Shown: positions 2,426 to 44,736 of the stretch, one piece after another | Layout of the letters: every line of letters begins with the position of its first letter | How positions within the stretch are numbered: position 1 is the first letter of the stretch | IMG/VR virus record: IMGVR_UViG_3300036830_000098 | Location: 1-51,078 of that record | Reading direction: 5' to 3' (one strand) | Length of the DNA stretch: 51,078 nucleotides | From: a virus | Lineage: Duplodnaviria > Caudoviricetes | The notes under the pieces: model-generated | Seen by the model: the letters and a program-made list of their open reading frames with translations, nothing else | Told to the model about the DNA's origin: nothing | Databases searched by the model: none | Position numbers and translations under genes: made by a program

Positions 2426-2504
2426 AATCGAACGACTGCTGAAGCAGTCGCCGGACAAGATAAAAGAAATCTTCGAGAACGCAGCCAAGGAAATGAATAA
2501 ATGA
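2271..2504 (+). CDS. Small conserved head-region protein, overlapping the portal 3' end
   Basis: 77 aa helical protein (ADWLRSPETQ); stop abuts the GroES-like ATG; occupies the usual slot between portal and GroES-like genes. Confidence 0.6.
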   Translation: MQAAALADWLRSPETQALLTYLRFRQEPAISMLLQGLPVPPETQAKAAGCNEIERLLKQSPDKIKEIFENAAKEMNK

Positions 2505-2971
2505 GCAACGTCGGAGTCCACGATTTCGCTATACCCCACGAGTTCGTGCAGCCGACGCGCGATATGGTTATCATCCGCATGCCGTTGCCGCCGAAGATGG
2601 TCGGAAGTGTTCATGTTCCCGACCTGGTGCGCGACATGGCGCAGCACAATGTCATGGCTGGTCGCGTCGTCGCGATGGGTCCGCTGGCATTCACCTACAA
2701 AGACGGCAACGGCTTGGCGCGGCAGGATGTAAAAATTGGCGATTGGGTCGTCATCCGTCCTTTCGCCGGTACGCTCATGCAAGGCGGCAAATTGCAGATC
2801 ACGAGCGGCTGGCGCTACGTATCCAGTTTCCAAGACGTGCTTGGTTTGCTGCCGGCCGACAAGATGCCGGACCCGTCAACCTTGGTATGGGACGACGCCG
2901 AAGAACCGCCGAAGACCGCAACGCAAGCGGAATGGCCGAGCAACGTGCGAGAAACGATAAGGATGCCATGA
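2501..2971 (+). CDS. GroES-like co-chaperonin
   Basis: P..D.VII, GSVHVPD, GRVVAMGP and VKIGDWV motifs of the Cpn10 fold. Confidence 0.85.
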   Translation: MSNVGVHDFAIPHEFVQPTRDMVIIRMPLPPKMVGSVHVPDLVRDMAQHNVMAGRVVAMGPLAFTYKDGNGLARQDVKIGDWVVIRPFAGTLMQGGKLQITSGWRYVSSFQDVLGLLPADKMPDPSTLVWDDAEEPPKTATQAEWPSNVRETIRMP

Positions 2972-4483: not shown

Positions 4484-6025
4484 TCAACCGTCTACGGCCA
4501 TAGAAATCGCGCAGCAATCCCACCTGTCCGGCGAGCGGCCCAGTACGGCGCGTACTTTCTCTTTCAAAGTCATGAAAAGCCGTGCGTTTTCGTCACGACG
4601 ACATCCAGTTTGTCCCCATTTGTAAGCTGCCGCCTCTTCCTGTGCCAGTTTGTCGTTCGGCATCGATACGTTGCCTTGGAGCCAGCGCAGCAACTTGTCG
4701 TGCAGCTCGGCGCGGCGGTTGCCGTACATGACCGAGTTATTCGCGCCGTGGCTGAATACCACGGGCACGATCTTTTCATCACCAAGAGTGCGCATGCGCA
4801 GGCGGCAACCTGCTATCAGGTCGCGCCCATAACCGCCTGTGGCGTCAATAAGTATAGCGTCCATATCGAAACGCTTGAACGTCGCTACCAGCCAATCCGA
4901 TGCTACATTACCGTCCCGGCTCGCCAGCTCGCCCCATACGCGGGCGCCGATCGCGGAACCTTGCCGGTCGCACACAAAAGGCTTGTCCTGGCCGTCGCCA
5001 GCCGGATCGACACAAAGCAGCTTCAAAGCGCCCGCGGACGGCGCAGCTTTGTTCGCCATCGCGGCGGCCACGATAGACGCGGGGTAGAAGTCCAGCGTGC
5101 TATCGGCCATGAAGCATTCACTGTACACGGCGGGATACTCTTGCCGCGTCAGTCTGTGGATTGTCTCAGGCTGGCCGCCGTTCATTGTCGCAATGGTGTA
5201 GTTCTGCAACCAGAACCAATAAAGTTGTTCGGGGTCCAGCCCGTGCATTCGACCGTAGTCCGTGAAGTCCTTCGGCGCGTGCCAGTTGGGTGGGACCGCT
5301 GTGCGGTATTCCGGCATGATGGCCCACGGCAGGAAATGAATGCGCCACGGTCCCTTGTTTTGCTGGCGATTGGCTTCCTCGCACATACTAAAGAACATGC
5401 CGGACTGTCCGTTGCCGGTGCTCTCCATTGCGATCTCAGTACCGGGTAGGTTTTGCACGGTTTGCAGCAAGCCCGAAGACAAGTCTTCCGTGCTGTCGAA
5501 AAATGCGGCTTCCGACAAATGCAGCAAATGAAAATCGTCCGAACGCCCAATATCGCCGCCATCGGCCGATGCGACCTTGTACAGCGATTCCAACTTGTCG
5601 AATATCAGCTCTCGCGCGTTCGACCCGCCAAGATGCGGACGAATCGACTGCGGTAGCTCTTCGTAAAAATGCTTCACTTCGCGATGCAAATTAGTCGCGC
5701 TGTCTGTCCGGTGCGCTACAACTTGTGCGCGGCGCCCCGTTTCCGTGGCCGTGTGGTGGAAGTACCGGCCGCTTATATAGGTGCTGACGCCCATACGGCG
5801 AGCCTTGGGGATTAGCGCCCGCACGGTTCCGAATACTTCGCGCTCGCGTTCAATGCGGGCGTGCAGAAGTTTCTGAGCGTTGTTGAGAATAAAAGGAATG
5901 CGCTCGCCGCCTGATCGGGGACGCACGCGCAAGAACTTTTCCCGGTAATAGTCGAAATTGCGCAACTTTGTCCGAACAGACTCTCTAGCCTGCGTTGACG
6001 ATTCGGGTTGCCACGGGAAGTTCAA
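4484..6025 (-). CDS. terL: Terminase large subunit
   Basis: Q-motif LNNAQ, Walker A-like KARRMGVST, Walker B LHLSE, motif III EST, nuclease CVDPA and SPDRWD. Confidence 0.93.
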   Translation of the reverse strand: MNFPWQPESSTQARESVRTKLRNFDYYREKFLRVRPRSGGERIPFILNNAQKLLHARIEREREVFGTVRALIPKARRMGVSTYISGRYFHHTATETGRRAQVVAHRTDSATNLHREVKHFYEELPQSIRPHLGGSNARELIFDKLESLYKVASADGGDIGRSDDFHLLHLSEAAFFDSTEDLSSGLLQTVQNLPGTEIAMESTGNGQSGMFFSMCEEANRQQNKGPWRIHFLPWAIMPEYRTAVPPNWHAPKDFTDYGRMHGLDPEQLYWFWLQNYTIATMNGGQPETIHRLTRQEYPAVYSECFMADSTLDFYPASIVAAAMANKAAPSAGALKLLCVDPAGDGQDKPFVCDRQGSAIGARVWGELASRDGNVASDWLVATFKRFDMDAILIDATGGYGRDLIAGCRLRMRTLGDEKIVPVVFSHGANNSVMYGNRRAELHDKLLRWLQGNVSMPNDKLAQEEAAAYKWGQTGCRRDENARLFMTLKEKVRAVLGRSPDRWDCCAISMAVDG

Positions 6026-29636: not shown

Positions 29637-30011
29637 ATGCGCGACCGCTCCGAATGGATACGCGGTGAAACCGGGCCACAGAAAATCGGCACCAGGAGTT
29701 ACAAGCGGCTCACTGAGTTTTCGCGACCATGCGCGACGTGCAAGCAACCGTTCTCGATCTTCGTCACTGAGAAGATTGCCGAGGGGTTGGCCGATTCCAA
29801 TAATTTCGGTCTGAGGAATTGCGAGGTACACCGACGCGGCGCCGCGCCCATCGATAGCGAAGAACTCGAATCGCTACGTACAAAGGACCGCGTTATGGCC
29901 GATGAATTGTCGGGCCTCTATGCGACGATCCGCGATTTGAAAGAACGGTTGGCGAAAGCTGAAGCGCGTCCAGCGCCAAAAGGCTTGACGTTTCCTTGGG
30001 GCCAGCGTTAA
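29637..30011 (+). CDS. Zn-binding coiled-coil protein with FPW tail
   Basis: CATC...CEVH; ends LTFPWGQR. Confidence 0.65.
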   Translation: MRDRSEWIRGETGPQKIGTRSYKRLTEFSRPCATCKQPFSIFVTEKIAEGLADSNNFGLRNCEVHRRGAAPIDSEELESLRTKDRVMADELSGLYATIRDLKERLAKAEARPAPKGLTFPWGQR

Positions 30012-30079
30012 AAGAAAAACCCGCCCCGGCGCTGGACACCGGGACGGGCTAACGATGCACACCCAGGCTCGGGGCCTGA

Positions 30080-32137
30080 ATGCCGCCATTTCCAGATAGC
30101 ATCCAATCGTTCTGGGTACAAGCCCAGGCCCGGGGACTGTTCCCGCTCGCCATAGCACGCGGGAGCAAGGCCCCGATCGGCGAAGGCTGGAACGTATGGA
30201 CACATCCTATCGCTCATCCGGGTGCCGGCGCTGTTGGGCTGCGCTGCGGCGACGGCGGATTATCGGCGTTTGATTGCGATCATTCCGACCCGGTGATGGC
30301 GCAACGCCTGCTGGGTGCATTCCGTTCCGTGCTGGGTCCGGATATTCCGGTACGCTGGGGCCGCGAACCGCGTTTTCTGATTCCTTATTTTCTTACCGAT
30401 GCGCCCGTACAGGGCCGTACATTCTCATTCCCGGACGGCCAAAAATTGCAACTCATGGGCGGTCAGTTCATTGCCTTTGGCGAGCACAAAGATACAAAAC
30501 AACCCTACCGCTGGGAAAATTGGGGGGTTGACTGGCCGCGAATAACGACGGCGCAGCTCCAGCAAATACTGACCGAAGTGCCGTTAAAAGCCGGGACCTC
30601 ATTGCGGTTTTCGGCCGAACATGAAACCGCCAGCGTCGATGAGCTAAAGTACGCCGCGCCGCAGACGCAAGATGAATGGCAAGCCGGCCGCGACGCCGCG
30701 ATGCGCTATCTAGGGCTGCTCAAGCATGAACTCATGGGCAGGACGGAGGGGCGCGGCTCGACCATTTTCGCAATCGTCGGCGTGCTGAAATTTGCCGAAC
30801 GTAACGGCATGTGCACACGGCGCGAGATCGAGGACGCCATAACCGACGCCGGGCACAGCCTGGATGAAGGGCTCGGCGGTCGCACGCTCGGCCAGGAAAT
30901 CCAGCGCCAGGACGAACTGCCGGTGCTGCGCGGTAACCTCATCATGCAAGCGATCATGTCACGCCGCACGATTCTGCAAGGGCTGGCCGACGCGCAGAAA
31001 ACGCCCGCGCTGGCGGCGCGCACGGGTTTTGAAATCTCATTGGAGGACCACACTAACGAGCTGCCTTGGCTGCTTTACCAGCGCATTCTATGTGGCGAGG
31101 TACATTTTTTCACCGGGCATAGCGGCTCGGGAAAATCAACCGTCATCACTGACATGGCTATCAACTACCTTAAAGGAACTGCCTGGCTTGATGCCGACAT
31201 CGAGAAAGCAAACGGTCATGTTTTGTGGATCGCGTCCGAAGATGATTATGGCACGGAACGGCGCGTGCGGCATTTACTCAGACAGGAATCGGACGCGCGC
31301 AATCTGGCATCGCGCTTTCACTTAATCCGCGGTATCAACGAACCGATGGCGTTCGAACAGCAATGTGTCGCGCAGACTCAGGCGATGGCCGCAATGGGCA
31401 TGCGCGTCGATATGATCGTACTCGATACGTGGGGTGCGTCGGGCTTGTGCTTTGCGGACAACGACACCGAAGCCGTGTTGAAAGCCATGTTTATCCTGAA
31501 GAACGTAGGCAAGCGCACCGCTGCCGCCGTACTGGTAACGGACCACTTGCCGCTCGGCAACGAAGAAGCATGGCAGAAAGGCAACGGCGCCAAATCAGGC
31601 AATAGTGGTTTTGTCTACCGCATCACGGCCAATCGAAAAGACATGGTATCGATCGATTGTGGCAAGGCGCGCGGCGCCCCGAAAGCGAAAAGTTTCCTTG
31701 GTCGAATCGTATCCGAAAACTACGGCAGGGACATAAAGGGCCGCACAACCACGGTTAACGTATTCAAGCGCGACCTGATGCCGTCGCAGACTGAAAAAGA
31801 ACAAAGCGTCGTTATGCGTCTGGCCGCGGTGCTGCCTGGCGTCGTTGCCGCCGGCATGGATGCCTTGCGTTCGGGCTCCATTGTCAGATTCGATAGCGTG
31901 GCCGCCGACATCGGCCATGCGGTCAAAGGCGAAGTGCCAGGCTACGTCATAACCAAGGACGCCGCGTTGAAAACATTTACCAAAGATGGCATGCAAAGCT
32001 TGCTAAACAGTGGTCATCTCCGTACAATGCATGGAGTCCCGTTTCTTGCTGTTTTCGCGCCGTCAGGATCGACGAAAGAGAGTCTGATAATTCCTTGGGC
32101 AATCGAGCCGCCAAAAGTGGAGACTTTTCCGTGGTAG
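30080..32137 (+). CDS. Bifunctional primase-polymerase (Prim-Pol) fused to a RepA/AAA_25-type helicase
   Basis: KAP...W, GLRCG, AFDCD; Walker A GHSGSGKS, WIASED, Walker B IVLDT, DH. Confidence 0.88.
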   Translation: MPPFPDSIQSFWVQAQARGLFPLAIARGSKAPIGEGWNVWTHPIAHPGAGAVGLRCGDGGLSAFDCDHSDPVMAQRLLGAFRSVLGPDIPVRWGREPRFLIPYFLTDAPVQGRTFSFPDGQKLQLMGGQFIAFGEHKDTKQPYRWENWGVDWPRITTAQLQQILTEVPLKAGTSLRFSAEHETASVDELKYAAPQTQDEWQAGRDAAMRYLGLLKHELMGRTEGRGSTIFAIVGVLKFAERNGMCTRREIEDAITDAGHSLDEGLGGRTLGQEIQRQDELPVLRGNLIMQAIMSRRTILQGLADAQKTPALAARTGFEISLEDHTNELPWLLYQRILCGEVHFFTGHSGSGKSTVITDMAINYLKGTAWLDADIEKANGHVLWIASEDDYGTERRVRHLLRQESDARNLASRFHLIRGINEPMAFEQQCVAQTQAMAAMGMRVDMIVLDTWGASGLCFADNDTEAVLKAMFILKNVGKRTAAAVLVTDHLPLGNEEAWQKGNGAKSGNSGFVYRITANRKDMVSIDCGKARGAPKAKSFLGRIVSENYGRDIKGRTTTVNVFKRDLMPSQTEKEQSVVMRLAAVLPGVVAAGMDALRSGSIVRFDSVAADIGHAVKGEVPGYVITKDAALKTFTKDGMQSLLNSGHLRTMHGVPFLAVFAPSGSTKESLIIPWAIEPPKVETFPW

Positions 32138-32340
32138 ACTTCCCTTGGTCCGTGCCTCCACGTTTCAAAGTCGGCGACGAAATATATTCGCATGTCGATC
32201 GCGGTCGCGTTATCGAAGTGGACGCCGTTGCTGGAATCATGCGGGTAACTTGGGACGATGGCGACGGCGGCACCATAACGTATCCGCTGGACGCAGATTA
32301 TTTCGAGACGGAGCCGCCGGAGAAAATGCCGTGGGAGTAG
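32131..32340 (+). CDS. Small SH3-like protein with PW motifs at both ends
   Basis: GTG start with GGAGA SD; FKVGDEI.HVDRGRVIEV..MRVTWD. Confidence 0.65.
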   Translation: MVDFPWSVPPRFKVGDEIYSHVDRGRVIEVDAVAGIMRVTWDDGDGGTITYPLDADYFETEPPEKMPWE

Positions 32341-32645
32341 ACCGATTCCCTTGGGAAAATCCGCCGCTGAACGACACCGTTGCAGCGTTGCAGCGCGATT
32401 TCGCTTACGCTGTGAGAACGACCTGTGTTATCGTTCACAGCAATAATCCGGCGTTCAAGGCGATGGCAAACACCGCACGCGGGCAGCTCGTACCGCGCGG
32501 CGAAGTCAAGTTCACGGACGGCACGACGGTCGAGCTGCATGACATCGGGATGTGTCAGCCGAACGTATCTGAAATGACCGTACAAGAGATCATGTCGCGC
32601 GTGTGGGAAATGGCAACGAATTTAGGTCTGGAGCTGGTAGTATGA
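32331..32645 (+). CDS. Hypothetical protein with N-terminal FPW
   Basis: GTG at 32331 with GGAGA SD; MGVDRFPWENPP. Confidence 0.6.
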   Translation: MGVDRFPWENPPLNDTVAALQRDFAYAVRTTCVIVHSNNPAFKAMANTARGQLVPRGEVKFTDGTTVELHDIGMCQPNVSEMTVQEIMSRVWEMATNLGLELVV

Positions 32646-32947
32646 ATTATTGGCCGGCTTCGCTGTTCATCCGCAGTCCGTATTTGCTGCCCGCGGGCCA
32701 GTGGGAGATTGCAAACATTGGGCGCCCCGGTGCGGTAATCTCGGAAAGTACTCTTGTCGCATGCCACCAGATCGCGGAAACAACGCCGGGCAGCGGCGCG
32801 TCGCTGGTGTTGATTTGCAGCGAAGGTGCGCCCGTGCGCCGTGCATATCTGAACCACCCGACCGATGTAGAATGGACGGCGCTGGAGCGTGGCGGCTTTG
32901 TGGCGAATGGCGGCAATTTCGGTTTTGTGCTTGACGCGCTGCACTGA
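32642..32947 (+). CDS. Hypothetical protein
   Basis: ATGA coupling, GGAG SD. Confidence 0.6.
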   Translation: MNYWPASLFIRSPYLLPAGQWEIANIGRPGAVISESTLVACHQIAETTPGSGASLVLICSEGAPVRRAYLNHPTDVEWTALERGGFVANGGNFGFVLDALH

Positions 32948-33522
32948 TGAGGATGCCTTGGGAGCCTCCTGTGTACGGCATGCTGCGCGCTGCGAACAAC
33001 GGCGGCGAGCGGCGTGCGAATGATTTTTACCCGTCACCACGCGAACCGGCGCAAGCACTAATCCCGAAACTGACTGGATGGCCGCGCGCTATTTGGGAGC
33101 CTGCATGCGGTGACGGTGGAATCGCGAAACCGTTTGAAGAAGCGGGCTTCCAAGTTACGGGTACGGATTTAGTCTATCGAGGCTATGGATGGGGCGGGGT
33201 GGATTTTCTTTCAACTGCGACGCGCGCAACCGACGCGCTTGTGACTAATCCACCATACGGAAAATTGGTAACGCGCTTCATAGAGCACGCACTTGATTTG
33301 GGCGTGCCCCATATCGCCATGCTTCTTAATGTCAACTTGTGGCATGCAGAACGACGTACTAAACTATGGAACAGACGCACGCCAGAAGCTATTTACGCGC
33401 TAACGTGGCGCCCAGATTGGACAGGGAGTGGCGCTCCTTATTTTAACGCGATATGGACCGTGTGGGCGCCGAAGAGCGCAGCGTTTACGCGCTACGAGCT
33501 ACTTGACTTCCCTTGGAAATAA
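32947..33522 (+). CDS. Amino (N6A/N4C) DNA methyltransferase
   Basis: DFYPSP, SAM-binding WEPACGDG, catalytic TNPPY. Confidence 0.82.
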   Translation: MRMPWEPPVYGMLRAANNGGERRANDFYPSPREPAQALIPKLTGWPRAIWEPACGDGGIAKPFEEAGFQVTGTDLVYRGYGWGGVDFLSTATRATDALVTNPPYGKLVTRFIEHALDLGVPHIAMLLNVNLWHAERRTKLWNRRTPEAIYALTWRPDWTGSGAPYFNAIWTVWAPKSAAFTRYELLDFPWK

Positions 33523-35735: not shown

Positions 35736-36164
35736 ATGAAACTCTGTTTCGACAGTATCGAGGAAGTCAAGCTTTTCGTCGCCGCTCTGAAAGGCACGCG
35801 CGGCAAGAAGGGTGAAGAGGAATCCGGTGATGCCGCCGTGCACCAAGCCCCGGCGCCGCTCATGCCGCCCCAAGCCGCCCCACAGGCTTTCCAGGCTGCC
35901 GCAGCACCGCAGTTTTCACCGCCTGCCGCGTTCCCAATCGGCCCGGGTACTGACCCTGCCGTGATGGCGCTCGTGGGCCGCATCAATACGCGCATCGACG
36001 GTGCCATTGCTTCGGGCCAGCCTGCCGACCAAGTTCTAACGTGGTTCCGCGGCCAGTGCGGCGCGGAAGCGGGCAACGCCACTATGGATCAGATCAAGGC
36101 GAATTTTCTGCCGAAGCTTTCGATGGCTGCGCTGGAAAACATCGCAAAATTGATGAACGCTTAG
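35736..36164 (+). CDS. Hypothetical protein with Pro/Ala linker
   Basis: GGGAG SD; TTGACG promoter-like sequence at 35669; usual slot before DUF2800-like genes. Confidence 0.7.
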   Translation: MKLCFDSIEEVKLFVAALKGTRGKKGEEESGDAAVHQAPAPLMPPQAAPQAFQAAAAPQFSPPAAFPIGPGTDPAVMALVGRINTRIDGAIASGQPADQVLTWFRGQCGAEAGNATMDQIKANFLPKLSMAALENIAKLMNA

Positions 36165-36175
36165 TAAGGACTGAC

Positions 36176-37159
36176 ATGGCCGGCCACGCCATCTACGCAC
36201 CTTCGTCGTCGGCAACTTGGCTGAAGTGCTCTTTCAGTGCGCGTAACAGCGTACCGGAAGCACCGAAGCCGCTGGCGACGAAGTTGGCGGCCGACGAAGG
36301 CACGCGCGGCCATGCGCTGCTAGAGGCTGCAATTTCCAAAATGGAAATGCCGGACGAAGGCGACAGCAAAGCCGAAGCAATCGCACTCGGAATGGACTTC
36401 ATCGATCAGTTAGAAGACGGCGAAATGGGCGCCGAAGTGGAAGGCGAGCTGGCCCCCGAATGCGGCGGCACGACCGATCTTTTGAACCTGCATCCGCACA
36501 TAACAACCGTTTTCGACGCGAAGTTTGGCAAGTGGGACGTGGATGCCTACCACAATACGCAAATGCTGACTTATGCGGCCATTCACCTACCGCGCACGAC
36601 AGCGGAGTGGTTCCGGCTTGTGATCTTTCAGCCGTTCGGTTTGGACGAGACGCCTTTCAAGCAATGGCTGGCACACCGTAGCGAAGTCGAGGCGCATCGC
36701 GAGCGCGTGCTTCGCGCTATCGTGGATCGAAGTGCGCCGACGCCGGGGCCGCATTGCCGCTGGTGTCGCGCATTCCAGCAGTGCCCCGCGATGGCGACCG
36801 ACGCCGGGTTTTTAATGGGCGCCATGTCGCGCGATCCGGCGACACTGACACCCGACGAACTGGTGCGCATGCTGCGCCTGATTCGCGCTCTCGGGGACGT
36901 GAAGGCGGTCTACGATGATATTTTGACGGCGAAGCTAAAGCTGGGCCACGCGGCGGCCGGCGCAACGCTGAAACCGGGACGTAGCTTCCGGGCCTGGAAT
37001 GACCAGGAACAGGCCGCCAAAGTGCTTTACGAAGCTTTTGGCCCCCGTGGGATCAAGCCGGTGTCGCCCGCGCAGGCCGAAAAACTTGGGCTGGCCGGAA
37101 AGCAGTATGCGGTTGTGGGCGCGCACAAGCCCGAAGCGGAACTCAAAGTTTTTTATTAA
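36176..37159 (+). CDS. DUF2800-like Cas4/PD-(D/E)xK exonuclease
   Basis: HA..APSS..W..C, EGT..H, GTTD, DAKFG, Q...YA, CRWC.....C Fe-S-type cysteines. Confidence 0.85.
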   Translation: MAGHAIYAPSSSATWLKCSFSARNSVPEAPKPLATKLAADEGTRGHALLEAAISKMEMPDEGDSKAEAIALGMDFIDQLEDGEMGAEVEGELAPECGGTTDLLNLHPHITTVFDAKFGKWDVDAYHNTQMLTYAAIHLPRTTAEWFRLVIFQPFGLDETPFKQWLAHRSEVEAHRERVLRAIVDRSAPTPGPHCRWCRAFQQCPAMATDAGFLMGAMSRDPATLTPDELVRMLRLIRALGDVKAVYDDILTAKLKLGHAAAGATLKPGRSFRAWNDQEQAAKVLYEAFGPRGIKPVSPAQAEKLGLAGKQYAVVGAHKPEAELKVFY

Positions 37160-37367: not shown

Positions 37368-38132
37368 ATGGCAAGCAACAGACAGTATGAAGCAGCTACA
37401 GTTTTTAATGCTCGCATTGTGGATATGCGCCACCTTTGGGAGCCGTCCCGCGAGTACCAAGGCAAGCCATCCGCAAAACCGAACTACTTTGCCATGTTCA
37501 TCGTGCCAAAGACGCAGGCACAGTGGCACATGGAACCAGCACTTGCTGGCATCACTGCCGCGTGCGGCAAGCTCTACGCTACTAACCCGCACGTTATCGC
37601 ATGGCCCGTCGTTGACGGCGACATGCCAAGTCCCCAAGGCAAGACTTCCGAGTTCGCCAAGGGGCACTGGCTGTTCTCGGCATCTACGAGCAACCCGCCG
37701 AACGTCGAAATCGTGCAAGCGGGCGGCGTACTGACAAAGCTGACGCAGAAAGTCGGGGTCAAGCCGGGCGATTATGTAATGGCCGGCGTGACTGCGGCCG
37801 TGAAACAGAATGATGCCCGTGGTGTCAAGCTGTACCTCAACGCCGTGGTATTCTCCGGTCCTGGTGAAGAAATCGTATTCGCCAACTCGGTCAGCGGTGC
37901 CGAGCTGATGAAGATGGCACAACAGCAGGGCCTCCAGGTTACGGGTTTCTCCGGTGCGCCTGGCGGCTTCGGGGGTCAGGGTGGCGGGGGTTTTACGCCG
38001 CCGGCCGGAAGCTTTGCCCTTACGACGGGAAACAATGCTACTCCGGGTGCCCAGGCCCAACCTGGGTCGGCTTTCGGTGGGAATGCGACATTCCCTTCTA
38101 ACCCGCCGGCTGGTCCTTTCGGCCCGCGTTGA
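37368..38132 (+). CDS. Single-stranded DNA-binding protein (DUF2815 / gp2.5-like)
   Basis: LWEP, P.Y...F..PK, DGD, GV..YLNAV; Gly/Pro-rich tail; AAGGA SD; follows the DUF2800-like gene. Confidence 0.8.
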   Translation: MASNRQYEAATVFNARIVDMRHLWEPSREYQGKPSAKPNYFAMFIVPKTQAQWHMEPALAGITAACGKLYATNPHVIAWPVVDGDMPSPQGKTSEFAKGHWLFSASTSNPPNVEIVQAGGVLTKLTQKVGVKPGDYVMAGVTAAVKQNDARGVKLYLNAVVFSGPGEEIVFANSVSGAELMKMAQQQGLQVTGFSGAPGGFGGQGGGGFTPPAGSFALTTGNNATPGAQAQPGSAFGGNATFPSNPPAGPFGPR

Positions 38133-38186: not shown

Positions 38187-38201
38187 GAGTGGGCTATCCT
38201 G

Positions 38202-39324
38202 TCAGATTAAAGTAGTGCCGAATTGGCTAGGTTGATTTTCAGGATCGAAGATAGCACGTAGATGAACGGCGGCGACGGCCATAAGCTTGTTGGCACCGAG
38301 AATGTCCGGCGTGTTATCGCCAAGTTGGGTTGGTCGGCGCTGCACCCCGCGCTCAAGAAGCGTGATTAGCGTTTCCGTGCTTATTGGCTGCGGCCATTCC
38401 GTGAATGATTTTATCGCTAGATCAATCGCGCGTTCAAGATTAGTTTGCGGTTCCGGCATCGGGGGTGTCCTGACAGGCTATTGCGCCCTAGCTGGCGCAG
38501 GAAAAAGGGAGACTACATTGCCGAACTCAAGGGCGCGGATTATCAGCGCGGCCTGCTCAGGGTATTGACCGTTCTGATTGCAACGGGCCACGAGCAGCCC
38601 CTTGTATTCGTTCTCATAGATGCTGGTGGCAAAATTATCGTTGCCAACTTCATCAACGGCGGTCCAGCGCGGTTCGGCCATCGGGCCTATTCCTCCAACT
38701 CGCCGGTTCCCATTACGAACCGAGCAATGCGTTTACAGACTGAGCGCCGTTCCTTGTCGAGTGCTTCGAGTGCCTTCTTGGCGAGATCGAGAGAGTTTTC
38801 TTGGCACCAGCAATCGGCGCGGTTCTGACCCCATCGACAATCCTTGCTGCAATCGCCAGCTTCGGCGTCCCAAATGGCGCGGCCAGCAATCTCGATTTCC
38901 TGCTCGCGCTTCATTGCGGGGTCCTCTGACAATCTGCTAGTGCATTTCATCGAGCGTTTCGGCAACTTGTTTGAAGTCGCCGTAAGTCATCTTTCTGACG
39001 TGCGTGGCGTAAGGGTCATGGCCACTACGAACCGGATGCTCCGGGGACCACTCAAAGCCATCGGAGCCAGAGAACGCATAGCCAGGATCGGTGTCTTGGG
39101 GGCGGGGCTCTGCCATCGGGCATAATCCGTTAGGCAGCCGGCTTCATCCGGCGCGTCTCTACGACGCCTTGAATTTCCTGCGTACCGATCAGCTTGTAAA
39201 CGCCAACCACAGTCTTGACGCCAAGCTCGCTGGCCTGGAGAACGTCGTCATATGGCTGGAGATAGTCCGGCCCGTCGCCGCCGTTTTCGCGCTTAATGAT
39301 CAACTGTTTTGGAAACTTTTTCAT
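38202..39324 (-). CDS. Five small accessory ORFs: 38202..38459, 38478..38681, 38687..38914, 38937..39116 and 39130..39324
   Basis: Co-oriented and closely spaced, most with SD-like sequences; transcribed away from the resolvase. Confidence 0.6.
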
Positions 39325-39334
39325 GTGGCCTCCG

Positions 39335-39400
39335 TTTCTGTAGCTTTACATACGCCTCTTGACTCATGGTGTCAAGTGAGCGTATGCTTATCTACAGAAA
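39335..39400. promoter_or_regulatory. Long imperfect inverted repeat: candidate res site and divergent promoters
   Basis: TTTCTGTAG..CATACGC..CTTGAC-tcatggt-GTCAAG..GCGTATG..CTACAGAAA. Confidence 0.7.
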
Positions 39401-39418
39401 TAGGGGCGTCCACGCCGC

Positions 39419-40054
39419 ATGGCAAAAAAGACGAAAATCGAGCCGCAGGGCTTCTTGGTGGGATATGCGCGAGTTTCGACCCAAGATCAGAATTTGGACC
39501 TCCAACTTGATGCCCTGCGAAAAGCAGGCGTCAAAGAGGACAATCTGCACGTCGAAAAGATATCCGGCGCGGCTTCCAAGCGCCCGGCGCTCGATCTCGC
39601 CATCATGGACCTACGCGAGGGCGACACGCTGCTGGTCTGGCGGCTCGACCGCTTCGCCCGGTCCATGCGCGACCTCTACGCCAGGCTCGATCGGGTCTAT
39701 GCCAAGGGCGCGAAGTTCCGCAGCCTTACCGAGTCCTTCGACTTCGACACCTTCACGGGCAAGTTCGTCCTCGGCATCCTTGGACTGGTGGCCGAGCTGG
39801 AACGTCAGATCATCGCGCACCGCACAAAGGCGGGCATCGACACATGGAAGGCCAAGGGTAAGGGCCAGTGGGGCCGACAGGCCATTCTCAGCGAGGCCAA
39901 GGTCAAGCAGGCTGGCAAGATGCTGAACAAGGGAATGAGCGGGCCGCAGGTGGCGAAGCACTTCAAGGTTTCGACACCGACCATATATCAGCACTATGCG
40001 CTGAACCGTTCTGGCCGTGGCCTGCGGTTCATCCGTAAGACCAAACCAAAGTGA
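39419..40054 (+). CDS. Small serine recombinase (resolvase/invertase) with C-terminal HTH
   Basis: GYARVSTQDQ, SG...RP, GDTLLVWRLDRFARS, AELER, VSTPTIY. Confidence 0.95.
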   Translation: MAKKTKIEPQGFLVGYARVSTQDQNLDLQLDALRKAGVKEDNLHVEKISGAASKRPALDLAIMDLREGDTLLVWRLDRFARSMRDLYARLDRVYAKGAKFRSLTESFDFDTFTGKFVLGILGLVAELERQIIAHRTKAGIDTWKAKGKGQWGRQAILSEAKVKQAGKMLNKGMSGPQVAKHFKVSTPTIYQHYALNRSGRGLRFIRKTKPK

Positions 40055-40065
40055 GGAGACTGAAC

Positions 40066-41541
40066 ATGCCGGCAGAGGACGTGCACATAGCCCACCTAAC
40101 CCAGGTCATCGGGCATCTGAAATCCATGACGGCTTGCGTCATCCGCGGCTATGAGCAGGCAGTCGAGGAACTTGGTCGCGAAGGCGATCATCGCGGCGAG
40201 GATTGGTCAGCCGCACACAAGTTCTTGAGATCGAGACTAGACACGTTCAAGACCGGCGGCGGCGATCTGCCGACGCGCGACGATTATCCGCGATAGTGCG
40301 GAAGGAACAGGAACGCCGAGATGGGCAAAAGTCGCTTGGAAGAATTGGCCGATATTTTTGAGACTGCGTCTAAGCAGCCGACTAATATCATCGATCCACC
40401 GTTCGACTGTGTGACGGTCAACCTGCGGCCAGAGACATGCGCTGAGATTTCTAAAAATCTGCGCGCGATGCAAACCTTGGCCGATCAGGCCACCAAACCA
40501 TTTGTAGGATGAGGAATTTGAAATGACTTTCGGTGGTCCAGAACCGGACAACTACCCGATGATGGAACGAATAGCGCGCGAGCGCAGATTGTGCGTCGGT
40601 CAAATTGTCAATGTTGTCTATCTGCGCGAGGTTGACGCGGGCACTGATAACGCTTGTTGGGTCGTTTGCAACAAGGTTGATCCTGGCGCTGTTCGTTTCA
40701 CTGACGAGTAAACAAAAGAGAACTTACCGCGCCCGGCGGCTCCGGGCATAGAAGCAGGAGAAGAAGCGATGTTTACGTTGAAGCTCTATCGGAACGGACC
40801 TCTGCCGCCTTCGGGGCGGACTATCATTCTCGAAACGGTCGGCCTTTGGGTCAACCATTGCGAAGGTGACGTGAAACATATCCTCGCCTTCAAAAAGAAA
40901 GTCGGCGTCCAAGATGAGGATGGCACGCCAGAGTTCTATGTCGGCGGCACGCCGATCAAATATGAGGACTTGCCGAAGGATGCACCGTCCGCCTCTTTCA
41001 GCGACCGCGACGATAACTATTTCGGTTGGGGCGTCCTCGAAAACGCTCAAGGCAAAACAACTGAAATGTTTCGATAGGTGAAGCCGGGCGCTGGCGGTGT
41101 TCGTCAGCGCCCACGAGGATTATGAGTTTGCATGTCGCCCGGGGAGAAGCGCAGACGGCAGGCCAAGCGAGCGCGTGACCGCGCCGCGTATGATCTATTA
41201 ATGGCGCCGTTGAGGGCTTCCGGTTCCGTTTGTGGTACATGCGCCCACTTCGCCAAGGCACCCTACGACAAGACGAAACATATTTGCGAAATAGACACCG
41301 ACAGTGACGGCTATACGGTCGTCAAGGCTGATGGCCTGTGTCCACAATGGACGCACAAATAACAGGATCGACCATGACGGCAACCGACAAACAGCGGGCG
41401 CTTATCTTGACCGGATGGGTATGCGCGCGTCTCTCTAGCGGTGATTGGAAGCTTGCACTATTCGATACCGCCGTCGGTATCGGATTGCTCGCTATCGCGC
41501 ACTGGATCGACGAAAGTTGGTTCTCACCCCTAAAGAACTAG
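40066..41541 (+). CDS. Six small accessory ORFs: 40066..40296, 40321..40512, 40523..40711, 40769..41077, 41132..41362 (Cys-rich) and 41374..41541
   Basis: Co-oriented behind the resolvase, mostly with AGGA/GAGG SDs. Confidence 0.6.
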
Positions 41542-41553
41542 GAGCCCGTTCAA

Positions 41554-43491
41554 TTGCTTCGCCCTGACGACCTGCCTTGTGACCTGGAAACACGCAGCCG
41601 CGTCGATCTTAAACGCGCAGGTGCACGGCGGTATTCCGCCGACGCGAGCACGCAGATCACGACGGCGGTGTGGCGTTTTCGCGGGGTGAAGAAACGTGCT
41701 TGTACGGTGCATCCGCATTTAGGAACGCATTCGATTTATCAACTCTACGACGATATCCGGCAATGCAGCCGTTTCGTCGCGCATCATGCAAACTTCGACG
41801 TGAACGTACTCATAAAGCAAAATCCTTTTTTCACGTTGCCGCTGTCAAAAATTGATTGCACGATGGCGAGGGCGCAGGCGCTTGCGCTCCCCGGCGGACT
41901 CGACCAAGTTTGCACCGCGTTGGGTATCAAGGGCAAAGACCCGCGCGGGCGCGCACTTGTCATGGCAACATGCAAGCCGCAACGCGATGGTACTTTTAAC
42001 GAAGATACGCAGACGTTCCGCGAACTGCTCGAATACAACGACCAAGATACCGAATGTCTTATTGAGCTGGATAGCAGGCTGCCCCCGCTGTCGCCGGACG
42101 AACGGCTGATATTTGAACGAACATGGCGCAAGAACGAACTGGGGCTGCCGATCGATGTACATCTTGCCACGGCCATCGCCATGCGCCGGCAGGAGATCGA
42201 GCACCAGAGCACCGCAACACTGATGGAGCTGACCGGGAACGCGGTAACTAAACTTTCGCAACGCCAACGCATCATTGAGTGGTGCAATAGCGGCAACCGC
42301 GCTGCCGGGTTGGAGAGTACGCAAAAGCACGTCGTCGCGGAAAAACTGGCCGATGAAAACCTGCACCCCAATGTGCGAATTGTTCTTGAATTGCTGCAAT
42401 CCGAAGGCGGTTCCGCACCTTTAAAAGCGCAAGCACTGTTGGACCGGCACGTTGGCGGCTACTATAAAGACGCAACGCGGTACTTCGGGGCACGATCGGG
42501 ACGCGGCACGTCGGAAGGCGTCAACACATTCAATATCGCGCGCCCATCCGGCAAGTATGATGGGCAGGACGGGCGCCCAACAATAGACAGCGTTATCAGT
42601 GGACTAAAGCAGGGTTTTAAGTACGACAACATTGCGCTTACTGACTGTCTGCGCGGCATGATTGTCGCCCCCGAAGGCTGGATGATTTGCGATAACGACC
42701 TATCGAACGCAGAATACCGCATTGCTTTGTGGATGGCTGGCGACACCGATCGTTTGAACGTACTGGCGACGGGCGGCGATCCCTACATCTACAATGCAAT
42801 AGCGATGGGCCGCTGTCCGCCGGACTCAACTAAGCATACGCATCCGCACGAGAGGCAAAGCTATAAGTCCGTGACGCTGGGGGGCAATTATCAACTCGGT
42901 TGGAAGACATACATGGCGCATCAACGCCGCGCCGGCAACAGCATGGACGAAAACAAAGCGCGTTCCGACATTGACGGTTACCGACAGGCGAATCCGCTAC
43001 TTGTGCAGCTTTGGTATGCACTTGCTGACGCATTCAAATTTGCCATCTACGAGCTGCCGGGCCGCATTTTCCCGGCTGGCAAAGTATCTTTCCAAAAAGA
43101 CGGGCATGGCACCGTCTGGATGCTGCTGCCGTCCGGCCGCGCCGTGCCGCACTACTCCGCGCACATTACTTACGGCGGTGAGATGGCTTTCTTCCGCGGC
43201 AAGTATGGCGCTATGCTCAGGCAAAAGGCGTTTGGAGGGAGTCTTTTAGAAATCGCCTGCCAGTCCATGACGCGGGACTTAGTAACCGCCGCCGAAGCCG
43301 ATATCGAGCGCGAACTGCCGGACGTACATTTGATTTTGGATGTGTACGATTCCATACTGGCGCTTGCGCCCGCTCGCATTGCAAAGCAGCGATCCGAACA
43401 AATGCGTCAAATTATGAAACGCCCGCGTTCATGGACTTCGGGGCTGCCGCTGGATTGCGAAGGCTATGAAAGTTTAAGAATGTCCAAATGA
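41554..43491 (+). CDS. polA: Family A DNA polymerase with 3'-5' exonuclease
   Basis: ExoI DLET, ExoII HANFD, ExoIII YNDQD; motif A DLSNAEYR, motif B RQSYKSVTLGGNY, motif C VYDS; AGGAG SD with TTG start. Confidence 0.9.
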   Translation: MLRPDDLPCDLETRSRVDLKRAGARRYSADASTQITTAVWRFRGVKKRACTVHPHLGTHSIYQLYDDIRQCSRFVAHHANFDVNVLIKQNPFFTLPLSKIDCTMARAQALALPGGLDQVCTALGIKGKDPRGRALVMATCKPQRDGTFNEDTQTFRELLEYNDQDTECLIELDSRLPPLSPDERLIFERTWRKNELGLPIDVHLATAIAMRRQEIEHQSTATLMELTGNAVTKLSQRQRIIEWCNSGNRAAGLESTQKHVVAEKLADENLHPNVRIVLELLQSEGGSAPLKAQALLDRHVGGYYKDATRYFGARSGRGTSEGVNTFNIARPSGKYDGQDGRPTIDSVISGLKQGFKYDNIALTDCLRGMIVAPEGWMICDNDLSNAEYRIALWMAGDTDRLNVLATGGDPYIYNAIAMGRCPPDSTKHTHPHERQSYKSVTLGGNYQLGWKTYMAHQRRAGNSMDENKARSDIDGYRQANPLLVQLWYALADAFKFAIYELPGRIFPAGKVSFQKDGHGTVWMLLPSGRAVPHYSAHITYGGEMAFFRGKYGAMLRQKAFGGSLLEIACQSMTRDLVTAAEADIERELPDVHLILDVYDSILALAPARIAKQRSEQMRQIMKRPRSWTSGLPLDCEGYESLRMSK

Positions 43492-44054: not shown

Positions 44055-44224
44055 AACCAACAATATGCAGAGAGCCGCACGACGAAACAAGACCCGACGT
44101 GTTGGATTACGAAACTGCGATGCTCATAATGGGTGACATAGAAAGTAGATCATCGTGGAGCACGCCATTCGTACTTGCCCAATGGGTCGCCAAAATAAGA
44201 AAATACGAACGAAACGTTAAATGA
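44051..44224 (+). CDS. Small hypothetical protein
   Basis: ATGA overlaps at both ends. Confidence 0.55.
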   Translation: MKPTICREPHDETRPDVLDYETAMLIMGDIESRSSWSTPFVLAQWVAKIRKYERNVK

Positions 44225-44736
44225 GCCAATTCGCGCAAGTCGGCCGCTTTGTTCTTCGTGATATTGAGCCCTGGGAAGGACCTGGACTTTTCGCCATGAC
44301 AGGCGACCGGCACGTCACGAAATACATGGGTTTCAAGGCCCACGACAGCGTTGACGACGCCACGCGGCTTATCCAGAGCTACAAAAATTCTCCGTCTACG
44401 TTCAAGGCCGTTTGCGTGGACGGGAGCCTAGGCGACATGATCGGCGTAGTTGGCATTGAGATAAGCAGGCACCAGGCCGCGATCACAATCATGTTTCGCC
44501 GCGACTGGAAAGCGCGGGGCGCGGGGCGCGAGTTCTCGGTGCCGTTTGTCAAGTGGGTTTTCACGCACCCTCAAATATGGCGAGTGTGGGCTTTTTGCCA
44601 CGTTGAAAACATTCCGGTACAAAGGGTACTTGAACGAATGGGCGCGAGACGCGAAGGTTTGCTGCATCGATTCGAGATATTCCCGAACATAAGCACGGAG
44701 CCTCAATCATGTTTCATTTACGCCATTACGCGGTAG
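44221..44736 (+). CDS. GNAT (RimJ/RimL-type) acetyltransferase
   Basis: D..VTKYM, IWRVWAFCHVENIPVQRVLERMGARREG. Confidence 0.85.
   Translation: MSQFAQVGRFVLRDIEPWEGPGLFAMTGDRHVTKYMGFKAHDSVDDATRLIQSYKNSPSTFKAVCVDGSLGDMIGVVGIEISRHQAAITIMFRRDWKARGAGREFSVPFVKWVFTHPQIWRVWAFCHVENIPVQRVLERMGARREGLLHRFEIFPNISTEPQSCFIYAITR

Follow-up and report, generated by a model that had tools for sequence, protein, structure and literature searches.

The described systems closest to the one reported here are the short tails that tether replisome partners in phage T7 and the tip of the bacterial single-stranded DNA-binding protein (SSB). In T7 the polymerase has basic patches with which the helicase tails make contact, and processivity falls threefold when the tails are removed (PMC8472574). 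K587, K589, R590, R591, K594 and R599 make up the front basic patch, to which the gp2.5 tail is anchored, and a structure of gp5 with a gp4-tail peptide exists (PMC12339929). The gp4 and gp2.5 tails are short and flexible, have an aromatic residue at or near the end and are common to unrelated replisome proteins, and the SSB tip has a hydrophobic-Pro-aromatic core that follows a disordered linker. A peptide that resembles both in these respects is described here from IMG/VR virus record IMGVR_UViG_3300036830_000098, an uncultured member of a podophage family whose complete 51,078 bp (57% GC) constitute the stretch analyzed (the window below). This peptide (the tag below), with a core of hydrophobic residue, Pro and Trp, is lineage-wide, is a signal at the peptide level, and lies at the termini of unrelated DNA-acting proteins. 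We hold with moderate confidence that the tag is best explained as a portable docking peptide like the T7 gp4 and gp2.5 tails; its likeliest reader is the family A DNA polymerase (PolA) that the phage itself encodes.

A sequence-only reading of the window had listed ten copies of [F/M/I]-P-W on seven proteins, and all ten were found where, and in the frame in which, it had placed them (Table 1). Four of the five N-terminal copies require a TTG or GTG start codon (the methyltransferase begins with ATG); in relatives an ATG stands zero to seven codons ahead of the motif, often directly after an in-frame stop codon, and the start of the large terminase subunit TerL is the same in independent protein-database gene calls, so the TTG and GTG starts of the window are supported and the true starts lie upstream of the N-terminal motifs. 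A six-frame census of the window with a hexamer coding-potential test placed all nine coding-frame matches to [FYM]-P-W at protein ends and none in a protein interior; the other eight matches fall in non-coding frames.

The family comparison comprises 11 complete genomes, the window and 10 IMG/VR records taken whole. In these genomes 66 of 80 matches in called genes lie no more than 15 residues from an end; 1000 residue shuffles, made with conservative longest-open reading frame (ORF) starts, gave 2.81 ± 1.74 terminal matches with a maximum of 9, and in the window alone there are 6 against 0.31 ± 0.56 (maximum 3). The 14 interior matches are neither enriched nor depleted. These counts bear out the view of the sequence-only reading that chance is an unlikely source of the terminal copies. 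Automatic classification across the 11 genomes gave 45 C-terminal, 42 N-terminal, 5 interior, 6 one-sided ("up only") and 71 non-coding matches, on gene calls from a crude hexamer caller that leave a few rows doubtful (by genome and position, G000 5740; G001 36, a terminal-repeat duplicate of 53919; G007 8892; G002 30822, which belongs to a different W-M-x-W family; and the overlapping-ORF cluster G000 18709/G007 21821). The window also has an ORF at 18656-19027 (minus strand), overlapping another on the same strand, that carries [LI]-F-P-W-[DSN]-R-[IV] 11–17 residues from its end and is kept in G006 and G007; it could be a true gene, arise from a frameshift or be fortuitous.

In DNA terms, the word TTYCCNTGG occurs 14 times in the window against an expectation of 2.93 ± 1.87, and none of 100 shuffles reached that number. 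When the set TTY, TAY or ATG, then CCN, then TGG was counted by phase in called genes of the 11 genomes, the sense frame had 80 occurrences and each of the five other phases 8–21. The terminal copies are spelled by 12–15 distinct 9-mers, and 33 of the 45 C-terminal tags use a CCR proline codon compared with 67% genome-wide. Because it is frame-specific, uses 12–15 9-mers and is kept in orthologues with diverged flanks, the tag is a peptide-level signal and not a DNA site, as the sequence-only reading had supposed; outside the coding frame the DNA word is not kept, and a DNA site is ruled out by the phase and codon statistics. What would favor a nucleic-acid origin are the two gene junctions at 32110-32160 and 32310-32360, at both of which the GTG of the next gene lies inside the CCG-TGG (Pro-Trp codons) of the previous gene with GGAG 6–8 nt upstream; the CCR-TGG used in all 13 tag-ended sequences (window and 12 relatives) of the primase-polymerase (Prim-Pol)/helicase, where varied downstream genes begin; the methyltransferase insert, which has tags on both flanks; and a mild excess of TTYCCNTGG outside the coding-frame tags (seven, against about 2.9 expected for the whole window). 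Such an origin leaves unexplained the N-terminal copies and those C-terminal copies that are followed by a gap, for example that at 29991, after which come a hairpin and 68 nt with no gene overlap. An embedded start codon as the cause of C-terminal tags was likewise rejected, being true of the Prim-Pol junction only and not general. A ribosome hop or frameshift that joins genes (take-off TGG-TAG, landing TGG; 32126-32148 and 32326-32354) was rejected because the arrangement is not kept, the tagged genes of relatives lying 200–300 nt apart or beside other genes.

Relatives of the window were found in IMG/VR, as 13 contigs whose Prim-Pol proteins are 72–78% identical to that of the window; no DNA-level relative was found among GenBank phages, where the Prim-Pol protein gave only weak primase matches, and neither the TerL protein nor a TerL alignment found any in the GTDB genome set. 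For one TerL homologue the labelled source is a Planctomycetota metagenome-assembled genome, a label that we do not treat as host evidence. Orthologues retain the tag. The Zn-ribbon/coiled-coil protein encoded at 29637 ends in [FYM]PW plus one to three residues in 13 of 13 sequences (window and 12 orthologues), although the preceding 30–100 residues are unalignable, and the protein encoded at 32331 has [FYM]PW-[ED]-x-x-P near its start in a like 13 of 13. Prim-Pol ends in [FMY]PW plus 0–3 residues in 12 of 13 relatives (13 of 14 sequences with the window), and its sub-terminal copy takes the forms IPW, IPF, IPY, MPW or VNW. The small protein 32131-32340 has a C-terminal [FML]PW in seven of nine other alignment rows and lacks it in two, and eight orthologues of the helix-turn-helix (HTH) protein begin M(SL)FPWL. 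TerL has an N-terminal x-P-W in all 11 family genomes, including G007, whose database gene call is too short, and among 120 database TerL homologues listed, 101 have x-P-W within the first 30 residues, 11 of them with two copies (hydrophobic residue, per copy: F 74, Y 16, L 12, M 6). Of the other 19, 18 have their start at the conserved core or beyond it, and the remaining one has two copies of F-P-Y; no interior [FYM]PW was found among the 120, and a linker whose length varies separates the TerL tag from the conserved core. In G008 (L041:11236-11870) the 32131-32340 orthologue is interrupted by an HNH-type ORF that itself ends in QRFPW plus eight residues.

The consensus of the tag is an optional K or R, then F, Y, M or L, then P, W and E, Q or D. 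Position -1 is mostly K, S, T or R and position +1 is E or Q, with no acidic run, and N-terminal copies have Pro or Ala two to three residues further on. The Trp is invariant and in C-terminal copies stands 0–3 residues before the stop codon in 38 of 45 cases, being the last residue in 3 of 45. The linker between tag and conserved fold varies in length and is rich in P, A, S and Q. An AlphaFold2 (AF2) model of the 69-aa double-tagged protein (32131-32340) has a barrel block with a predicted local distance difference test (pLDDT) score of 81–89 and tails at 54 and 64; gripping of the tags by this protein's own barrel was rejected as an explanation, since the modelled tails are of low confidence and are not docked.

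All carriers of recognizable function act on DNA. Seven proteins are tagged in the window and about 7–9 per genome, and across the 11 genomes the carriers are Prim-Pol/helicase, TerL, the ~102-aa HTH protein, the Zn-ribbon/coiled-coil protein, two small proteins, a DUF6551 protein, an HNH-type ORF, a 45–65-aa protein and methyltransferases of four families (the phrog_799 type, two N6_N4_Mtase and one Dam type); a ParB-like protein is also named among them. The HTH protein is a candidate for the small terminase subunit TerS and matched no family in profile searches; its gene lies just downstream of a 1428-aa ejection-protein-like gene. The 1428-aa protein was considered as a hub and dropped, as it resembles an SLT/ejection protein. 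The methyltransferase of the window has homologues in only 3 of 10 relatives. Its family profile spans residues 12–182 with the tags outside, and a homologue in Roseobacter phage CRP-901 (43% identity) has no tag, the N-terminal tag of the window protein falling outside the alignment; lying outside the profile and missing from that homologue, the tag is an add-on. The four tagged methyltransferase families are unrelated to one another, and the three that relatives have besides the phrog_799 type finish with [KP]MPWE[TI]-stop. Some relatives (L021:2681-2869, L042:4913-5059, L027:10489-10896, L034:9229-9387) have beside a TerS-like gene a 45–65-aa ORF, not present in the window, that starts with x-P-W-E followed by D/E-x-[IL]-P-x-F-L-[KR]-R and in some copies ends in a second x-P-W-E; the D/E-x-[IL]-P-x-F-L-[KR]-R motif resembles the conserved C-terminal peptide of FtsZ.

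Table 1. Tag copies and other features of the 51,078-bp window
Feature	Positions	Strand	Remarks
TerL gene	4484-6025	-	phrog_2
TerL, N-terminal F-P-W	6011..6019	-	TTG start 6025; M-N-F-P-W-Q-P
~102-aa HTH protein (TerS candidate), N-terminal F-P-W	21469..21477	-	gene 21172-21480, GTG start 21480
Zn-ribbon/coiled-coil protein, C-terminal F-P-W	29991..29999	+	gene 29637-30011; end TFPWGQR-stop
Prim-Pol/AAA_25 helicase gene	30080-32137	+	PF09250 + AAA_25; early module
Prim-Pol/helicase, sub-terminal I-P-W	32090..32098	+	IIPWAIEPP, first tail copy
Prim-Pol/helicase, terminal F-P-W-stop	32126..32134	+	gene end IIPWAIEPPKVETFPW-stop
Small beta-barrel protein, N-terminal F-P-W(SVPP)	32140..32148	+	gene 32131-32340; GTG start, V-D-F-P-W
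Small beta-barrel protein, C-terminal M-P-W(E-stop)	32326..32334	+	end KMPWE-stop
Protein 32331-32645, N-terminal F-P-W(ENPP)	32346..32354	+	GTG start 32331; G-V-D-R-F-P-W-E-N-P-P
DNA methyltransferase gene	32947-33522	+	phrog_799, E 1.7e-43; early module
Methyltransferase, N-terminal M-P-W(EPP)	32953..32961	+	start MRMPWEPP
Methyltransferase, C-terminal F-P-W(K-stop)	33508..33516	+	end DFPWK-stop
Near-duplicate gene junctions	32110-32160 and 32310-32360		CCGTGG..TAGAC..TTCCCTTGG
TTYCCNTGG outside coding-frame tags	732, 2485, 3619, 5740, 9775, 18701, 31693
ORF with [LI]-F-P-W-[DSN]-R-[IV]	18656-19027	-	overlaps 18675-19748 (-)
Small SH3-like barrels	25791-25991 and 32131-32340
SNF2-type helicase			early module
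DUF2800 exonuclease	36041-37159	+	early module
gp2.5/Enc34-type SSB	37368-38132	+	early module
PolA	41554-43491	+	phrog_17; early module
1428-aa ejection-protein-like gene
Capsid protein
Head-closure protein
Needle-like protein
Weak GroES-like protein	2501-2971	+	core gene, 10/10 relatives
136-aa ORF	26277-26687	-	paralogue of C-terminal part of DUF2800 exonuclease
Resolvase/invertase	39419-40054		within block ~38200-41540
RimJ/RimL-type GNAT acetyltransferase	44221-44736	+	PF13302; core gene, 10/10 relatives

The same tail occurs outside this family. A scan of IMG/VR for K-M-P-W-E followed by TAA or TAG gave 80 listed loci among at least 119 stretches, and class counts made by eye from the tail context apply to these 80: 52 are ends of a ~565–575-aa protein with a conserved pre-tail context, 7 belong to a ~130-aa protein with two tandem terminal copies, 4 to the window's family, 4 to SSB-like proteins and 3 to Lys-rich ~127-aa proteins, 1 is a TerL C-terminus, 2 are in baseplate proteins, 1 is in an unknown 136-aa protein and 6 are of sub-gene length. 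A PHROG scan of 13 of the listed proteins identified both ~570-aa proteins tested as primase/helicase (phrog_239), three as SSB (phrog_6015), one as TerL and two as baseplate proteins, and gave nothing for five. The phages with KMPWE on SSBs and primase/helicases range from 27% to 63% in GC. The nearest cultured primase/helicase, that of Cellulophaga phage phi10:1 (44% identity), has an acidic tail that ends in V-P-F, and at one of the loci (L128) the SSB ends in KMPWE and the adjoining helicase in an L-P-F tip. Hydrophobic-Pro-Trp(-Glu) is thus an interchangeable variant of the aromatic tails of replisome proteins. No KMPWE-tailed SSB was found in a cultured phage, where matches cover the OB fold only. 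A description of the tag or of a KMPWE-type tail was not found in literature searches, and the only "FPW motif" paper concerns an actinobacterial sortase partner (PMC9282373).

Set beside the T7 tails, the tag agrees in that Prim-Pol ends in it in nearly all family sequences, as do, among the matches listed, the primase/helicases tested and three SSBs of other phages, and in that its modelled site on PolA, discussed below, aligns with T7 residues 587–600. Unlike T7, where two replisome proteins have such tails, about 7–9 proteins per genome are tagged here, among them terminase subunits and methyltransferases; N-terminal copies account for about half, and most carriers are not replisome proteins. 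The likeness to the bacterial SSB tip extends to the IPF and IPY variants of Prim-Pol and to the three uncultured-phage SSBs that end in KMPWE. The topology, however, is reversed: bacteria have one tip-bearing hub and many clients with the pocket, and here there are many tip-bearing clients. The acidic run is absent, and since one to three residues usually follow the Trp, conservation does not extend to a free carboxylate on the aromatic residue. The window's own SSB and its 10 orthologues also depart from this pattern and have a tail of another kind, with an aromatic residue, two residues (usually including Pro) and a terminal Arg (for example ..NPFGPR-stop; ..NPF-x-P-R-stop in most orthologues), after a long low-complexity linker rich in G, P, A and Q; this is probably another docking tip.

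Taken together, it is quite likely that the tag is a binding handle. It would belong to the same functional class as the T7 gp4 and gp2.5 tails and the SSB IPF tip, which tether replisome partners, and would consist of a hydrophobic residue (F more often than Y, M or L), Pro and Trp, often with K or R ahead and E or Q and Pro after, presented on a flexible protein end at a variable distance from the fold. The comparison with the SSB IPF tip made by the sequence-only reading holds in spirit, as homologous primase/helicases end either in an acidic ...VPF (phi10:1) or in ...KMPWE. From the primase-helicase the tail would have spread to TerL, the TerS-like protein, four methyltransferase families, the ParB-like protein and small adaptors, with newly captured genes gaining the tag. 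The reader would be PolA, the site a beta-hairpin between polymerase motifs B and C that corresponds to the T7 front basic patch, and priming and unwinding, methylation of new DNA and packaging would in this way be concentrated at the replication machinery. The component claims are held with different strength. That PolA reads the Prim-Pol tail is plausible, if somewhat short of probable, on the modelling below; that all carriers use the same site is doubtful; and it is speculative that the polymerase, or another single reader, is a toolbelt-like hub to which a handle at either end recruits at least eight client families, among them primase-helicase, both terminase subunits, a captured methyltransferase, the ParB-like protein and small adaptors. 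The sequence-only reading had proposed a docking tag that joins replication, methylation and packaging to one hub; the span of proteins is borne out, docking is the best-supported reading, and for the hub the modelled case is the pair of Prim-Pol tail and PolA.

When PolA was modelled in complex with the final 30 residues of Prim-Pol, three runs gave 0.61, 0.01 and 0.65 (median 0.61) and three controls 0.04, 0.00 and 0.00. Of 80 solved complexes 58 reach the mark applied, as do 2 of 110 mismatched pairs. The partner had a pLDDT of at least 31 and the contacts agreed to at least 12%, and the verdict is that the model supports binding without showing it. The tail contacts are SLIIPWAIEPP, a V and the final FPW, and those on PolA are residues 110, 121–124, 175–180, alternate residues of 505–535 (the beta-hairpin), 547, 553–556 and 627. 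In an alignment that includes T7 gp5 from GenBank, motifs A, B and C are correctly placed and T7 587–600 falls at residues 512–530 of the window PolA, on the modelled hairpin, and this agreement of the T7 patch with a predicted site is the strongest point for PolA. Alignments were built from the window PolA and 103 of 150 listed representatives (single-stretch matches of roughly 620–690 aa), and from 13 of the 14 Prim-Pol tails, L008 with its deviant end being left out. In 9 of 9 aligned family sequences PolA motif C (residues 597–600) reads V-Y-D-S, where the 104-row alignment has H in 96 and E in 97 at those motif C places; this is an unusual catalytic-site variant. The PolA match is broken at about residue 572–579 in G003 and G005, which may reflect an insertion or a split gene.

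Several observations weigh against PolA docking of this kind. The tag is not acidic, unlike the T7 tails, and the 42 N-terminal copies have no free carboxylate for use. One of the three complex runs gave 0.01, the partner's fold is uncertain, the strongest modelled contacts are with the sub-terminal IIPWAIEPP and not the final FPW, and the model pairs a single client with a single reader; its passing may in part reflect memory of the solved T7 polymerase-tail complex. Conservation of the PolA contacts does not significantly exceed that of random residues: it is 0.87 against 0.81 (p about 0.11) in the family alignment, which omits G003 and G005, and p is about 0.31 in the broad alignment. The AF2 model of TerL is poor (mean pLDDT 58.6) and shows just residues 1–11 to be unstructured, and there is no obvious reason for TerL and TerS to dock on a polymerase. 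The flanks of the 80 listed KMPWE loci showed no PolA of the window subfamily, and the reader in those phages may be something else, possibly a host protein.

This last point leads to the main rival, an unlikely one, namely that the tag is indeed a docking tag and its reader is a host replication protein (an SSB-tip reader or the sliding clamp) or another phage protein, for which the SSB, the Prim-Pol hexamer, the SNF2 helicase and the small SH3-like barrels are candidates. The presence of KMPWE on SSBs and primase/helicases over such a range of GC, in loci whose listed flanks lack the PolA type, fits such a reader, as does the SSB-tip-like acidic VPF tail at the equivalent position of the cultured relative's primase/helicase, and the P-x-x-P context would suit one that is SH3-like. 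Terminal position and tandem copies are also typical of clamp- and SSB-type motifs. Clamp-binding motifs such as the PIP-box are short, lie at either terminus of many unrelated DNA enzymes, sometimes in two copies, and their eukaryotic carriers include a DNA methyltransferase; the tag, compared by eye, does not match the clamp-binding consensus, and profile searches of the window proteins recognized no sliding-clamp gene. Against a reader other than PolA stands the modelled pair of PolA and the Prim-Pol tail, which passed while its controls stayed clean, at a predicted site homologous to the T7 patch.

It is improbable that the tag is a virion-loading address of the T4 capsid-targeting kind, by which methyltransferases, Prim-Pol and small anti-host proteins would be packed into the head and injected with the DNA, with TerL recognized by that receptor at the portal. 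The carrier set does resemble the domain repertoire of injected "polyvalent" proteins, and the HTH carrier is encoded next to the ejection-protein-like gene. However, the carriers are mostly early replication-module genes, TerL is not packaged, there is no protease site, primase/helicases and SSBs of other phages share the tail, and the T7 precedent is replisome docking; moreover, T4 capsid-targeting sequences are an N-terminal tag that the head protease removes from virion-internal proteins, and here Prim-Pol, methyltransferases and TerL are tagged, with both termini in use. More improbable still is the common degron offered as an option by the sequence-only reading, or a protease or chaperone tag that times protein turnover: short, hydrophobic, terminal sequences on flexible ends would suit it, but the carriers are essential enzymes needed all through the lytic cycle, the tag stands at either end and is tandemly duplicated on some TerL proteins, no protease is linked to it, and it is kept on primase/helicase and SSB tails, whose known role is partner binding. 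Finally, that the tag is a by-product of the next gene's Shine-Dalgarno sequence and start, or a boundary for recombinational gene shuffling, is hardly credible, being largely refuted as the main cause by the phase, 9-mer and codon statistics given above, though it could have contributed to the spread of the tag.

Some features of the window stand apart from the tag. The C-terminal part of the DUF2800 exonuclease has a paralogue in the 136-aa minus-strand ORF, and the two proteins have similar ends, ..KPE-x-x-x-K-x-x-Y. The block at ~38200-41540, with a resolvase/invertase and about nine small ORFs, has a counterpart in 0 of 10 relatives and is probably a mobile insert between SSB and PolA. 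The GNAT acetyltransferase and the weakly matched GroES-like protein are core genes (Table 1).

The chemistry of the tag, its use at two termini, the breadth of its clients and the unreported tails on many primase/helicases and SSBs of uncultured phages are notable. The known tethering tails, in T7 and bacterial SSB, are on one or two proteins only, whereas here a tail of different chemistry serves at N- and C-termini alike, on seven proteins in the window and about a dozen families across the lineage. Both terminase subunits (TerS as a candidate) and four independently acquired methyltransferase families are tagged, and the presence of tags across such newcomers therefore points to strong selection to plug DNA-acting newcomers into one partner. 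The tag has practical uses also. It can serve as a mark for the correction of start codons, as at least one database TerL start is too short and 17 more of the 120 listed look alike, and it flags accessory genes that are functionally integrated. If the reader is the polymerase, the result would be a testable model in which replication, self-methylation and packaging are coupled; and if the hub reading is true, replication, protective methylation and genome packaging would be physically linked, and the handle would be an unrecognized, widespread alternative to the acidic SSB/T7-type tail in many uncultured phages.

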